Of a DNA stretch of 64,000 bases, positions 34,539 to 40,304 are shown in pieces. The stretch covers positions 128,001-192,000 of the forward strand of contig JBBRLI010000002.1 of assembly GCA_038231455.1 (NCBI GenBank). The letters run 5' to 3'. Source of the DNA: Vulcanimicrobiales bacterium. GTDB lineage: Bacteria > Vulcanimicrobiota > Vulcanimicrobiia > Vulcanimicrobiales > Vulcanimicrobiaceae. Below the pieces are notes generated by a model. It was not told where the DNA came from. It did not search any database and worked only from the letters and a program-made list of their open reading frames with translations. A program made the translations under genes and the position numbers. Positions within the stretch are counted from its first letter, which is position 1, and every line of letters starts with the position of its first letter.

Positions 34539-35661
34539 AAGAGCGGCGCTGTACGTCCATCTGCCGTTCTGCCCGTATATCTGCCCGTACTGCGATTTCG
34601 CGAAGTGGGCGTTCGCACCCGAGGCGGCTGCCTCGTATCTGCTCGCTCTGGAGGCGGAGATCGAACGTGCCCCGCTTATCGCGGCCACAACGCTTTTCTT
34701 TGGCGGCGGGACGCCCAATACGTACGAACCGCACGAGATCGCCACGATCATCGCGCGTCTGCGCGCGCGCTTCGACTTGCGCGATGATGCGGAAATATCG
34801 GTAGAAATCAATCCGGACCTCGCGCTTTGCGAGCGGCTGGCCGGTTTGCGTGAGGCGGGGGTCAACCGGCTCTCGATCGGCGTGCAGTCCTTCGATGCTC
34901 GCGAACTCAAGACGCTCGGACGCCGACATTCTGCAAACGATGTTGCCGTCGTCCTCGAGCGTGCGCGCGCCGCGGGTTTTGCGAATATTTCGATCGATTT
35001 GATGTTTGGCGTTCCCGGTCAGACCGATCTCACATGGGCTGCTTCGCTCGATCGCGCTTTTGCACTGGGCATCACGCACGTCTCGACCTATGGATTGACG
35101 ATCGAAGAAGGCACGCCGTACGCGCGTTGGTACGAACGCGAACCCGGCGCGTTCTTTGACGACGAGCGCGAAGCGACGCTGTATCAGATCGCGATCGACC
35201 GAGCGGCCGCAGCGGGTTTCGAGCACTACGAGATTAGCAACTTCGCGCAGCCCGGTTACCGCTGCGCGCATAACGCGAACTACTGGCGCAACGGGAGCTA
35301 TCTTGGTCTCGGCGTCGGCGCGGCGTCGTATCGCGCGGGCGTGCGTTCCACGAACACGCGGGACCTTACCGAGTATGTCGCGGCGGCACGTTCCGGCGTG
35401 CCGATCCCCGGCGAATCCGAGGAACTCACGGGCGACGATCGCATCGGCGAGGCGACGATGCTTGCTTTGCGGACGCTGGAGGGGGTCAACGTGCGCGACT
35501 TCAGCGAACGGTATGGCGTGGATTTCCTCAAGCGCTACGCCCGGGTCATCGCGGACCTCGACGAAGCCGGACTCCTCGCCGTGAGCGGCGAGTCCGTCCG
35601 GCTCACGCCGCGCGGCCGATTTCTTGCAAACGACGTTTGTGGCGCGTTCCTCAACACGTAG
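34507..35661 (+). CDS. hemW: Radical SAM heme chaperone HemW (start approximate)
   Basis: [47 protein letters not shown]. Confidence 0.9.
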
Positions 35662-35680
35662 CGGCGGTTCTGCCACGACC

Positions 35681-36739
35681 GTGCTTCGGCTCATCTTTGC
35701 GGCCGTGTTCGGCACGACCGGATTTTTGCTCGGCCGCGAGGCCTACGCGCACCTGATTTCGATTCACCTCGCAAGTGAAGCGTGGCAAATCGCGGCCAAC
35801 GTCGTCGCGCCGGTCGTCGGCGCGGTCTTGGGCGTGTTCGTTGCCCCCTTCGCGCAGTCGCTCTTCGAGGTCGAACTCGTCTCCGTCGAACGTTCGATCG
35901 ATCGGCTTGCGCCGGGCGAACTCGTCGGCGGCGCGGTCGGTCTGATCGCCGGCCTCATCATCGCGTTCTTGATCAAGAGCGTGCTCTTTGAATTCATCAA
36001 CATCGCCGGTCCAGCCGGCGGTTATATCGCGATCCTGCTCTACATCATCGTGAGCGTGTTCGCGGCGTACCTCGGAGCGCGCGTCGGCGCAAAGCAGCGC
36101 GTGAGCCTGCGCGGTTTTTCATCGACCGTTCCGGCGGCAGCGCCCGGGAGCGTTCCCAAAGTCATCGACACATCGGTCATCATCGACGGGCGGATCCTCG
36201 AGATCGTGTCCACGGGATTTCTTGAAGGCCCGCTCCTCTTGCCGCGCTTCGTGCTGCGCGAACTGCAGCTCATCGCCGATTCCACCGATGCGATGAAACG
36301 TACCCGCGGTCGCCGCGGACTCGACGTGCTCACGAAATTGCAAGCACTGATGCCCCTCGAGATCGTCGAACGCGATTACGACGAGATCTCGGCGGTCGAT
36401 GCGAAGCTCGTCAAGCTCGCCCAAGAACGGGACGGCAAGCTCGTCACGAACGACTTCAACCTCAATCGCGTCGCGCACGTCGAAGGCGTGAGCGTGCTGA
36501 ACATCAACGAACTCGCGAATGCTGTAAAGCCCGTGCTGTTGCCCGGAGAAGAACTCCGTGTGGCGATCATCCGCGAAGGGAAAGAACCCAATCAAGGAGT
36601 TGGATATTTGGACGACGGCACGATGATCGTGGTCGAACACGGTCGCAAACTTATCGGTGAGACGGTCGACGTGGCCGTGACGAGCGCACTGCAGACGATG
36701 GCGGGCCGCATGATTTTTGCGCGTCCGAAGCGACCATGA
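35681..36739 (+). CDS. Membrane PIN/TRAM-domain protein (YacL-like)
   Basis: Four TM helices, [36 protein letters not shown]; conserved position before ispD-ispF. Confidence 0.93.
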
Positions 36740-37692
36740 TCTGGGGTGCGGTGATCGTCGCGGCCGGGCGCGGTACGCGCTTCGGCCGGCCAAAACAGCT
36801 CGCCTTACTTGGCGATCGTCCGATGCTCGCCTATTCGATCGAGACGTTCGCGGCGATGCCGGAGATTTGCGAACTCGTGATTGTAACCGAATCCGAGTAC
36901 ATCGAGGACGTGCAGGCGCTCGTCCTTGGGCGGGTCGGCTCGCTGCCGTGTAGCGTCGTTGCCGGCGGCCCCGAGCGGCAGGACAGCGTGCGGCTCGGGC
37001 TCGACGCACTCGGCGAGGGATGCGTTGGCGTGCTCGTGCATGACGGTGCGCGTCCGCTCGTGCGACCTGCCGATATCCGCGCCGGCATGCGGGTCGTGCG
37101 CACCGGTATCGCCTCGCTCCTCGTCACGCCCGTCGTCGATACGATCAAAGTGCTGGGCGAACACAATCACGTCGCGCGTACGCTCGACCGCGCGACGCTC
37201 GTCGCCGCGCAGACGCCGCAGTTTGCGATGACGCGCGACATGCGCCGTGCACACGCCGATGCCTACCGTAACGGCGCCGTTCTTACCGATGATACGGCGC
37301 TGCTCGAACGCGCCGGCTGCGATGTGATCGCCGTCGTCGGTTCGCCTGAGAATTTCAAAGTGACGCATCCGGAGGATGTGTTGCGCGCTGAGGCGATCCT
37401 CGCCGGGCGCAGTCCGACGATCGTCGATGAAGAAGAAGTCTTTGTCGTCGAATCCTACATCCCGGAACGAGCGATCGATGACGTTGCCGAAGAGATCGAA
37501 CGTCGCGAAGGACGCGTCGATGAGATCAATCGCGATCTGCCGGATGCGGCGATGATTCGCGCGTATATCGGCGCGTCCAATTTGCGCGGATTCGGTACGC
37601 AGCTCACCGTGCTCGGCGGCCCAGGTGCCATGTTTACGGCGCACCACGCCCACTACGCGCCGCGAGCGCCGGCTGACCGAACGCATTCGTGA
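36736..37692 (+). CDS. ispD: 2-C-methyl-D-erythritol 4-phosphate cytidylyltransferase with an extra C-terminal EF-G domain V-like domain
   Basis: [41 protein letters not shown], then an extension of about 90 aa. Confidence 0.93.
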
Positions 37693-38165
37693 GGGTCGGT
37701 CATGGATTCGATGCGCACCGACTCGTCATCGGTCGTCCGTTCATCTTGGGTGGCGTGCACGTGCCCGCCGATGTCGGTCCACTCGGACATAGCGATGCCG
37801 ACGTACTCGCGCACGCGATCTGCGATGCGCTTCTCGGTGCGGCCGCGCTCGGCGATCTCGGCGCGCACTTCCCCGATACCGACGAACGCTGGCGCGGCGC
37901 CGATTCGCTTGCGCTCATGGCCGAGTGCGTAGTCATGCTCCGTCGGGCGGGTTACGGAATTGCGAATGTCGATGCGACGATCGTCGTGCAGACGCCCAAA
38001 CTCGCACCGCATCTTCCGGCTATGCGCGAGCGTCTCGCCGCGACGCTCGCGGTTCCGCTCGGCCACATCAGCGTCAAAGCGAAGACCAGCGAAGGCCTGG
38101 GCTATACCGGCGACGGGAGCGGGATTGCCGCCTACGCCGTGGCGCTGATCGAACCGCTCGTTTAG
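37689..38165 (+). CDS. ispF: 2-C-methyl-D-erythritol 2,4-cyclodiphosphate synthase
   Basis: [35 protein letters not shown]. Confidence 0.97.
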   Translation: MRVGHGFDAHRLVIGRPFILGGVHVPADVGPLGHSDADVLAHAICDALLGAAALGDLGAHFPDTDERWRGADSLALMAECVVMLRRAGYGIANVDATIVVQTPKLAPHLPAMRERLAATLAVPLGHISVKAKTSEGLGYTGDGSGIAAYAVALIEPLV

Positions 38166-38231
38166 CAGGAGCGGTGCGTTGTGGCGCCGTTCCCAGAAAC
38201 GGTGAAGAATCGCGCCGTAGGCTCGGTGCAT

Positions 38232-38912
38232 ATGGAAAGCGAGCCGACCCGTGTTCTCGTCGTCGATGACGAGCGCCCGATCCGAGAACTGCTTGAAATC
38301 GGCCTCGGCCAGGCGGGTTTTGACGTGCGCACGGCCGCCGATGGAACCTTGGGCCTCGCCGCCGTGCGCGAATGGGAGCCCGATGCCATCGTGTTGGATG
38401 TGATGATGCCGCGGATCGACGGCATCACGCTCTTACCCATGCTCCGCAAGATCACCGAAGCGCCCATCTTGATGCTCAGCGCGAAAGGCGACGTCGTTGA
38501 CAAAGTCGAGGGACTGGCCCACGGTGCTGACGACTATCTCGCCAAACCTTTCGAGATTCCCGAGCTGATCGCGCGCATCCAAAGCGCGCTCCGTCGGCCG
38601 ACGCTGGCGAAACGCAGCACGCTCTCGTTCAGCGATCTCACGGTCTCGCTGGACGACCACATCGTCACGCGGGCCGGTAAACGCATCGACCTTTCGGCAC
38701 GCGAATTCGATCTGCTCGCGGCGCTGTTGAAATCGCCAAACCGCGTTTTCAGTCGCGCGCAACTGCTCGATCTCGTGTGGGGAATCGACCGTGACGTAAC
38801 GCTCGGAACCGTCGAAACGTATATCTGTTATCTCCGCGCGAAAGTTGACCGGGGTCAAGCGCCGCTCATTCATACGATACGCGGCGTCGGCTACTCGCTG
38901 CGCGAGGGCTAA
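38232..38912 (+). CDS. OmpR/PhoB family response regulator
   Basis: VLVVDDE, LDVMMP, GADDYLAKPF, IHTIRGVGY. Confidence 0.95.
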   Translation: MESEPTRVLVVDDERPIRELLEIGLGQAGFDVRTAADGTLGLAAVREWEPDAIVLDVMMPRIDGITLLPMLRKITEAPILMLSAKGDVVDKVEGLAHGADDYLAKPFEIPELIARIQSALRRPTLAKRSTLSFSDLTVSLDDHIVTRAGKRIDLSAREFDLLAALLKSPNRVFSRAQLLDLVWGIDRDVTLGTVETYICYLRAKVDRGQAPLIHTIRGVGYSLREG

Positions 38913-40304
38913 TTGTTTCGCGCCCTCGAGCAGCGGGTGACGTTTGCAATTGTCATCTCGGTGCTCGCGCTGTGCGCGATGCTGGGAGCCGTTGTCACGT
39001 GGGCAGCATGCACGATTATCGGCACGGGCTACATTCAAGCGCAGCATAACGCCGCAATGGAACTACCCGCAATCGCCGAGCGTGAAATCGCAAGCGCCGG
39101 CTCGCTCGAACGCGCGCGGCTTGCGATCGAACGGCATTTTGCGGGGACCGACATCGTCGTTCGCTTGCGGCCCGCGCGGCAACGTGGCATCGGAGGCGGC
39201 CCGCAGCCAAGCGATCTTCGTCACGGCGTGATGCCAGTGGGCGGACAAGCGCCGCGTGAATCGTTCGATGCGGCGCCATATCCCGGCGCCGTCCTCGTGA
39301 TGAGTCTCTCCGGTCTCCATCCGATGCGCGTCCCGATTGCAGGCGATCTGGCATTTATCATTCCGGACGTTTCTCGGCTCAACCGCGCTGCACTCGCGTT
39401 TTTCTCCGCGCTCGGCGCGATCGTCGCGGTCATCCTCATCGCTGGGGCGATTGCTGCGCGACTGCTCGCGCGCGCCGCAATTCGACCCCTCATCGATGTC
39501 ACGCTCGGATTACGCCGGCTCGCGCAAGGCGAGTTTACCCGGCATTGGATCGACACGAACGAGCGTAGTCCCCTCGGCGAACTCGCCGACGCCTATAACG
39601 GCGCCGTGGATCAGGTGACGGCGGCGATCGAAGAACGTCTGGAGACCGAATCCGAGATGCGCGCGTTCATTGCCGATGCCGGTCATGAACTGCGCACGCC
39701 GCTCACGGTCCTCACCGGCTACATCGACGTGCTGCAGAAAGGCGCGGCGCAGAACGCGCCGCTTGCCGAGCGCATCTACACCTCGATGCGGACCGAGAGT
39801 CGGCGCATGCGCTCGCTCATCGATAAACTCATTTTGCTCGCGCGGCTGGAGCGGCTCGATACGCACGCTGCTACACGCGTGGAACTCGAGCCCTTCGTCA
39901 AACGCGTGATCGACGCCGTCGCGCCGCACGGCTCGAACGTCGCGTTCCAAGCACACGCACACGACCTCGTCGTTTCGATCGACGATGCCGAATTGCACGC
40001 GGCATTTGCGAACCTGATCGAAAACGCGCTCAAATATGCACCGGGTTCTGCGGTCACCGTTGATTTACGCGCCGTCGGCAGCGAAGCGGAAATCGCGGTC
40101 AAGGACGCGGGTCCGGGCATGAGCGCGGCGGCACTCACGCACGCGTTCGACCGATTCTATCGCGGGGAGAACGTCGCGGCACCCGGATCCGGCCTTGGGC
40201 TATCGATTGCCAAGCGCGCGGTCGAACGCGCGCATGGGACGCTGAGGCTGGAAAGCCCGGCCGGAGACGGCGTGCGAGCGACGATCCGATTGCCTCGCGC
40301 CTGA
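38913..40304 (+). CDS. HAMP-domain sensor histidine kinase
   Basis: Two TM helices, HAMP, ADAGHELRTPLT, NLIENALKY, DAGPG, FDRFYRG, GSGLGL. Confidence 0.95.
   Translation: MFRALEQRVTFAIVISVLALCAMLGAVVTWAACTIIGTGYIQAQHNAAMELPAIAEREIASAGSLERARLAIERHFAGTDIVVRLRPARQRGIGGGPQPSDLRHGVMPVGGQAPRESFDAAPYPGAVLVMSLSGLHPMRVPIAGDLAFIIPDVSRLNRAALAFFSALGAIVAVILIAGAIAARLLARAAIRPLIDVTLGLRRLAQGEFTRHWIDTNERSPLGELADAYNGAVDQVTAAIEERLETESEMRAFIADAGHELRTPLTVLTGYIDVLQKGAAQNAPLAERIYTSMRTESRRMRSLIDKLILLARLERLDTHAATRVELEPFVKRVIDAVAPHGSNVAFQAHAHDLVVSIDDAELHAAFANLIENALKYAPGSAVTVDLRAVGSEAEIAVKDAGPGMSAAALTHAFDRFYRGENVAAPGSGLGLSIAKRAVERAHGTLRLESPAGDGVRATIRLPRA

Follow-up and report, generated by a model that had tools for sequence, protein, structure and literature searches.

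The systems closest to the protein described here are the monofunctional IspD (YgbP) cytidylyltransferases, represented by the families PF01128 and TIGR00453 and by the structures of the Bacillus subtilis (PDB 5ddt) and Escherichia coli (PDB 1i52) enzymes. IspD is a herbicide and anti-infective target, so a new way of modulating it has some general interest, although the present finding alone opens no long-standing question. Two related architectures likewise carry a second C-terminal domain. In bifunctional IspDF proteins (NF006899), which reflect the functional link between ispD and ispF, the added domain is IspF; human ISPD, a CDP-ribitol pyrophosphorylase (PDB 4cvh, 411 aa), is an IspD-family cytidylyltransferase with an extra C-terminal domain, a different substrate and a different lineage. 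On the translation side, domain V of elongation factor G (EF-G; PF00679, EFG_C) occurs, to our knowledge, almost only within translational GTPases. We analyzed a 64,000-nucleotide stretch of contig JBBRLI010000002.1 from a Vulcanimicrobiales bacterium (the window), in which an ispD gene encodes an enzyme with an EFG_C tail. The fusion is a lineage-restricted and selected domain recruitment: the protein belongs to the IspD family and to the EFG_C family, and is neither a translational GTPase nor an IspDF. What is new is the tail as an accessory domain of an otherwise known enzyme. Features of the locus are collected in Table 1.

Table 1. Coordinates of the fused ispD gene, its parts and its immediate neighbors (nucleotide positions in the window; residues refer to the fused protein).
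Feature	Position	Strand	Basis and remarks
Fused gene ispD-EFG_C	36736..37692	+	318 codons + TGA; ORF list, Pfam, NCBIfam
IspD catalytic domain (MEP cytidylyltransferase), residues 5-222	36748..37401	+	PF01128, TIGR00453, Foldseek, invariant motifs
Linker, residues 223-234, acidic (DEEE), predicted flexible	37402..37437	+	low pLDDT, raised omega
EFG_C (EF-G domain V-like) domain, residues 235-309	37438..37662	+	PF00679, PDB profile, AF2, Foldseek
R-D-L-P beta2-beta3 hairpin, tail-specific, residues 266-269	37531..37542	+	invariant columns, own EF-G alignment
Disordered C-terminal end, residues 310-318	37663..37689	+	pLDDT <50; length varies among relatives
ispF (MEcPP synthase), separate gene	37689..38165	+	ORF; PF02542 E 4.6e-64
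Membrane-anchored PIN + TRAM protein, upstream gene (YacL-like context)	35624..36739	+	ORF; PF01850, PF01938

A preliminary description of this DNA had observed that IspD homology ends well before the reading frame does, and that the frame continues to a GTGA overlap with ispF. Both points hold: the homology ends at L222, and the frame runs for a further 96 residues to a TGA (37690-37692) that overlaps the GTG start of ispF at 37689 (GTGA, 37689-37692). The linker joining the IspD and EFG_C domains is about 12 residues long, and a reading of the window DNA found no in-frame stop and no internal start within it. We rejected a wrong gene call, a frameshift or separate translation as the source of the tail, because the linker carries no in-frame start or stop and the same continuous IspD-tail frame is present in 30 of 31 further tail-bearing loci that were read, the exception (L064, genome G360) being frameshifted. 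The GC content of the tail (0.59-0.62) lies inside the local range of 0.58-0.68. The neighboring gene on the upstream side codes for a protein of 371 aa, hydrophobic in its N-terminal half and carrying PIN (PF01850, E 2.1e-8) and TRAM (PF01938, E 1.4e-7) domains after it; the stop codon of this gene overlaps the start of ispD. The order PIN-TRAM, ispD, ispF resembles the yacL-ispD-ispF arrangement known from Firmicutes. Downstream of ispF (38181-40304, + strand) lie an ORF of 243 aa (38181..38912) that looks like an OmpR-type response regulator and one of 463 aa (38913..40304) that looks like a sensor histidine kinase, as read from their translations alone.

The catalytic portion of the protein is that of an ordinary IspD. 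Residues 1-226 align end to end with monofunctional IspD (E 5.1e-31 against 5ddt in a PDB sequence search), with which the fused protein has in common both the conserved motifs and the gene order with ispF. The PF01128 match reaches 178.8 bits (cut-off 27; E 1.8e-52), with residues 5-222 covering profile positions 3-219 of 221, and the NCBIfam ispD model TIGR00453 scores 201.2 bits against a cut-off of 181.3. Residues A9, A10, G11, G13, R15, K20, H102, D103, G104, A105, R106, P107, K208 and T210 do not vary among 17 fused proteins; we take the Gly-rich loop, the lysines and the HDGARP motif to have the catalytic roles assigned to them in the E. coli IspD literature. A full-length AF2 model (mean pLDDT 86.8, pTM 0.77) gives the IspD domain a nucleotidyltransferase fold at pLDDT 87-96, with long strands at residues 125-140 and 146-165 forming the dimerisation beta-arm; linker residues 227-232 fall below 50, and the last 10 residues are also of low confidence. 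When this model was compared with the PDB by Foldseek, all 38 matches listed were IspD-family cytidylyltransferases (36 IspD and 2 S. aureus TarI) and spanned just 220-235 columns; the top matches, all IspD, had TMt values of 0.81-0.91. Judged by its sequence, the catalytic domain looks fully functional, and the protein is predicted to be an intact MEP cytidylyltransferase (CTP + MEP to CDP-ME).

Where the known enzymes stop, this one continues. The solved IspDs of bacteria and plants reach no further than query residue 217-232, whereas the fused protein adds about 90 residues that form a second domain, and neither the PDB sequence search nor Foldseek found a solved structure covering IspD together with the tail. 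The likeness to IspDF does not extend to the added domain, which in the window protein is not IspF, IspF being encoded by a separate overlapping ORF; the NF006899 model reaches only 130.3 bits against a cut-off of 417 and covers residues 4-224 only, so the protein is not an IspDF. Human ISPD matches query residues 4-232 (4cvh, E 4.2e-11 in the PDB sequence search), but its C-terminal domain has no sequence match to the tail and is absent among the 47 Foldseek matches listed for the tail model.

To identify the tail, we compared it with family models, sequence profiles and structures. EFG_C (PF00679) matches residues 235-309 with 30.0 bits in the whole protein and 31.7 bits in the 97-residue tail alone, above the gathering cut-off of 27.9, and NCBIfam EF-G models match residues 233-309, though weakly. 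The Pfam scan found no other family on the tail at E up to 10, ACT or other regulatory families included, and at the same limit no GTPase domain and no EF-G domain II, III or IV anywhere in the fused protein, which is hence not a translational GTPase. Eleven of 12 tails match PF00679 individually at E up to 0.01 (best E 1.2e-11). A profile of these 12 tails was searched against all PDB chain sequences, where the 37 best distinct sequences are all EF-G (36 full-length or truncated EF-G chains and one L9-EF-G chimera); the best match (E 7.6e-7) sets profile positions 13-89 of 96 on domain V with one 1-residue gap. Much weaker matches follow, to mitochondrial RRF2 (an EF-G homologue), BipA, eEF2 and a spliceosomal Tr-type G-domain protein. 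An AF2 model built on the tail alignment has the topology beta-alpha-beta-beta-alpha-beta, with core pLDDT 95-98 and a C-terminal end below 50. All 47 Foldseek matches listed for this model (ranks 1-50 against the PDB) are domain V chains of the EF-G/eEF2 type, comprising EF-G, EF-G2, mitochondrial EF-G, eEF2/aEF2 and spliceosome entries, the last presumably of the Snu114 type; the listed matches have TMq values of 0.68-0.73 over 72-80 columns, identities of 18-28% and rmsd values of 0.8-1.8 A in 46 of 47 cases (3.0 A in one). The domain V likeness that the preliminary description had drawn by eye is therefore borne out by the profile search, and the Pfam and structure comparisons it had proposed agree, the latter returning the ferredoxin-like fold.

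The tail's source within the EF-G superfamily can also be narrowed. The window genome holds four PF00679 copies, namely an EF-G-sized frame, two frames of about 612-615 aa and the IspD tail. A 30-tail HMM searched in this genome matches the IspD ORF (3e-34) and EF-G (1.4e-6) only, leaving the two other PF00679 ORFs unmatched. Because the EF-G frame is the only one reached besides the IspD ORF, the sequence comparison indicates that the tail descends from the domain V of an EF-G-type factor rather than from that of a LepA- or BipA-type factor. The two domains have in common the fold (rmsd about 1 A over 72-80 columns), VEV in beta1, R/K-A in beta3, G-F/Y before alpha2, and T and FSH in beta4. 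They differ in that the tail stands outside any GTPase, is only 18-28% identical to domain V, is far more acidic and carries its own D...RDLP hairpin. The net charge of the tail core ranges from -4 to -10 (median -6; 77 alignment columns, 30 tails), compared with -2 for the 75 residues of domain V in the genome's own EF-G, and the invariant D262...R266-D-L-P269 hairpin is absent from that domain V. A feature search of the ESM Atlas returned EF-G-fragment clusters only, one of them commonest in Vulcanimicrobiota; these clusters probably represent tail fragments labelled EF-G.

The distribution of the fusion was examined in protein libraries and in genomes of the phylum. The closest named relative belongs to a metagenome-assembled genome of Vulcanimicrobiota (= Eremiobacterota) and is 89% identical over all 318 residues, and a whole-protein search for related loci returned three loci. 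A word-indexed search of 5.8 billion proteins yielded seven tail relatives, all of 292-319 aa; six of the seven were already annotated with PF01128 and PF00679, and one of the seven is named, as '2-C-methyl-D-erythritol 4-phosphate cytidylyltransferase'. An exhaustive HMMER search of 1.84 billion cluster representatives gave 10 proteins at E 1e-10 or better. Ten matches of this search were scanned: P0008, P0010, P0012, P0013, P0016 and the weaker P0019 (E 4.4e-8) match the end of PF01128, and P0009 (PF00679 only) and P0014 (no family) both start with the end of an IspD domain. Two more, read but left unscanned, are a truncated tail (P0011) and a truncated tail running into unrelated sequence (P0015). 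The remaining matches are weaker (E 4.7e-10 and worse), and two scanned among them, P0017 and P0020, are true EF-G fragments. No stand-alone tail protein and no other host protein was found in the 1.84-billion library, its short matches being IspD-ended, truncated or frameshifted fragments. In that library the tail family appears only as IspD fusions, with true EF-G as the next relative.

Within the phylum, the tail profile was searched in 401 genomes, 297 of them from the window's family (f1, the window's own genome included) and 104 from 20 other families. Strong matches (E 3e-19 or better) numbered 90 and came from 89 genomes, every one of them in family f1 (89 of 297); the 104 genomes of the other 20 families had none. 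The separation is clean: the next matches lie at 1e-11 or worse, mostly in frames of about 700-840 aa, and correspond to each genome's own copy of EF-G. Unpublished genomes account for eight of the 89 (G022, G029, G020, G262, G372, G233, G361 and G205), and 81 remain without them; sequences from unpublished genomes in alignments A2-A5 (L004 and L018 from G022, L023 from G029, L027 from G020) feed the profiles, models, tree and statistics. Of the 53 IspD loci that we read, one is frameshifted (L064), 21 encode a plain IspD, and the other 31 have a tail of 86-101 residues, attached to IspD at an identical junction in every case. Twenty of the 21 plain IspDs end 5-14 residues past the domain, and the remaining one, L029, runs off its contig 10 residues past the domain.

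These results bear on two further points of the preliminary description. The fusion had been called unfamiliar, and this holds: no solved IspD structure extends past about residue 227-232, and literature searches for IspD/EF-G fusions, for Eremiobacter* IspD and for EFG_C/PF00679 in main texts found no description of an IspD-EFG_C fusion. The PF01128 + PF00679 architecture is nevertheless catalogued by machine, in the Pfam annotation of metagenomic homologues, while being undescribed in the literature. It had also been considered that close relatives might stop at about residue 225, and indeed all 21 plain loci end at about 226-235 (L029 at its contig end), but a same-genus relative and 87 further genomes keep the tail, which makes 89 when the window's own genome is counted.

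Conservation of the tail was assessed by substitution rates and by alignment. The closest pair sets the window protein against its relative from the same genus at a dS of about 0.7-0.8, with omega values of 0.076 (IspD domain), 0.075 (tail core) and 0.195 (linker and C-terminal end). Five more pairs, in which dS is higher and in part saturated, have omega values of 0.12-0.23 in the tail core versus 0.155-0.235 in IspD; in a seventh pair tail-core dS is saturated and yields no omega. Purifying selection acts on the tail core as strongly as on the catalytic domain. Thirty tails, 31-51% identical to that of the window (one same-genus tail reaches 87%), align almost without gaps, with single-residue gaps in two of the 30 rows and otherwise only C-terminal length differences, and eight positions are invariant among them: R225, E239, D262, R266, P269, R275, A276 and T301.

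A maximum-likelihood tree of the IspD domain was built from 51 rows (30 fused and 21 plain), omitting the frameshifted L064 and also L043, whose IspD-tail protein and junction are identical to those of L014. Fused and plain forms are interspersed on this tree, with 7 state changes (bootstrap range 6-8), at least 4 of them forced by well-supported branches, and the fused forms make up one clade in none of 200 bootstrap trees. From this interspersion the tail was probably lost several times. Given that the tails are homologous and share one junction with IspD, a single gain followed by several losses is the simplest reading, while exchange of ispD alleles within the family may be an alternative, the tree being a gene tree and not a species tree. 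A module kept under selection yet apparently lost in several lineages would be a useful accessory rather than an essential part of the enzyme. The plain IspD L037 (G004) is sister to the fused L047 (G261) of the same genus, g4 (support 95/83). This pair amounts to a natural tail deletion and could show tail loss and the changes that accompany it. More broadly, enzymologists gain an IspD with a built-in accessory domain together with natural tail-less sister genes for comparison.

We propose that IspD acquired a copy of EF-G domain V at its C-terminus, attached by a short acidic linker that is flexible. This probably happened a single time, in one family of Eremiobacterota (Vulcanimicrobiota), and the module has been kept under purifying selection while being lost again in several lineages. 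The module most likely has no remaining connection to the ribosome and would serve in docking or regulation, as a small, acidic domain of ferredoxin-like fold. It may pack, by way of its open beta-sheet face and the RDLP hairpin, against a basic patch on IspD, of its own or of the partner subunit, made up of Arg148, which lies in the dimerisation beta-arm, and Arg167, where helix 166-179 begins. Such a contact could stabilise or tune the IspD dimer and the active site, the putative docking site adjoining the dimerisation arm that helps build that active site. We hold with moderate confidence that this explanation, an intact IspD with a once-fused and repurposed non-ribosomal domain V that docks onto or regulates it, is the best overall, the role and the docking being what we infer. 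It would make the tail a clean natural repurposing of a ribosome-factor domain, recruited by a metabolic enzyme and selected across dozens of genera of an uncultured phylum.

The docking proposal is drawn from the acidity of the tail, from its invariant RDLP hairpin and D262, which EF-G lacks, and from a more basic IspD patch in fused proteins. Columns 167, 174, 112, 148 and 175 are the best separators of the 30 fused from the 21 plain IspDs. Position 167 is Arg in 22/30 fused versus 1/21 plain proteins and position 148 is Arg in 25/30 versus 5/21, whereas Glu at position 174 occurs in 1/30 fused and 14/21 plain proteins and Asp at position 112 in 0/30 and 10/21; position 175 is acidic in 27/30 fused proteins, and its commonest plain residue is Ala (8/21). 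The top four of these changes all make the IspD surface more positive in fused proteins. In the AF2 model, positions 167, 174 and 175 lie on helix 166-179 and position 148 on a long beta-arm strand. Three separate lineages of plain IspD, each nested within fused forms, have neither R148 nor R167; exceptions are the fused L047, which lacks R167, and the plain L019, which has both arginines. An independent-pairs test of tail presence against columns 167, 174, 112, 148, 175, 2 and 126 had just two usable pairs and no power, and since shared ancestry also confounds the comparison, the association between these columns and the tail serves as a lead only. The predicted flexibility of the linker counts against docking of the tail on IspD. 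Repeated loss, for its part, would mean that the module is dispensable, and would also fit a weak or condition-specific role.

Alternatively, the tail could be an adaptor for IspF (or IspE), binding the IspF trimer as a non-covalent analogue of the bifunctional IspDF hexamer and channelling MEP intermediates. Covalent IspD-IspF fusions exist elsewhere (NF006899 is among the NCBIfam matches of the window protein), and ispF directly follows ispD in every fused locus that is readable there: 25 of 29 fused loci have a complete ispF ORF starting -4 to +6 nt from the stop, and two more show the IspF N-terminus. However, the plain IspD genes of the same family are equally tightly followed by ispF, so adjacency does not discriminate in favor of an adaptor, and the IspD and IspF steps of the pathway are non-consecutive. 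A published study reports no IspD/IspE/IspF complex in Bacillus subtilis (PMC5821942), which also speaks against an adaptor. A complex prediction for the tail (residues 9-92, alignment A4) with three IspF copies (A5) gave a score of 0.02 (mark 0.32), which argues neither for nor against binding. On balance we find an adaptor function unlikely.

A second alternative is an ACT-like allosteric sensor, in which the ferredoxin-like module would bind a metabolite, be it an MEP intermediate, an isoprenoid diphosphate or a nucleotide, and modulate IspD. The beta-alpha-beta-beta-alpha-beta topology of the AF2 tail model is the same as that of ACT/RAM-type regulatory domains, and a ladder of conserved polar residues (E239, D262, R275 and T301) runs across the four tail strands. 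E239, R275/A276 and T301 are also present in EF-G domain V, and may simply be fold determinants because they are common to it. ACT domains usually bind their ligands at dimer interfaces, and there is no sign of tail dimerisation; this, together with EFG_C being the tail's sole Pfam match, makes a sensor improbable in our view, and the docking or regulatory module set out above is preferred.

It had also been suggested that the tail links MEP flux to translation. The module would then keep the contact of EF-G domain V with the ribosomal GTPase-associated centre or with an EF-G-interacting partner, and would either tether IspD there or compete with EF-G; if true, IspD would be physically or regulatorily coupled to translation, and the making of isoprenoid precursors would be directly connected with protein synthesis in Eremiobacterota. 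The homology of the tail to a ribosome-contacting domain is clear and closer to EF-G proper than to LepA/BipA-type factors, and its acidic surface may still be compatible with binding a basic ribosomal protein or another partner. The tail is, however, an isolated 75-residue domain without a G domain or domains II-IV, has diverged from domain V in identity and charge, bears a conserved hairpin unlike EF-G, and has apparently been lost repeatedly in one family while being found nowhere else. We consequently disfavor this suggestion and regard it as very unlikely. That the tail is a neutral passenger, a historical accident without present function that perhaps aids folding or solubility only, would fit its patchy distribution with several losses and the fact that the IspD of most bacteria works without it, but is highly improbable given an omega equal to that of the catalytic domain (0.075 vs 0.076, dS about 0.8) and the near absence of indels and eight invariant positions across 30 tails at 31-51% identity.

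Several loci depart from the common form of the fusion. In two loci of genus g57 (L062 in G359 and L063 in G162) the tail matches profile positions 1-83/84 only and ends soon after beta4, without the F-S-H-Y end, and the catalytic domain is without R167. At the frameshifted locus L064 (G360:C17:29500-32800), the IspD match covers residues 94-214 only and tail profile positions 1-63 lie in another frame, indicating an assembly error or else a pseudogene that is losing its tail. The unpublished metagenome-assembled genome G022 contains two differing tail copies on two short contigs, L004 (C208, at the contig end) and L018 (C232); both are followed by ispF, one being cut by the contig end, and the double copy looks like strain heterogeneity or a mixed bin rather than a true duplication.
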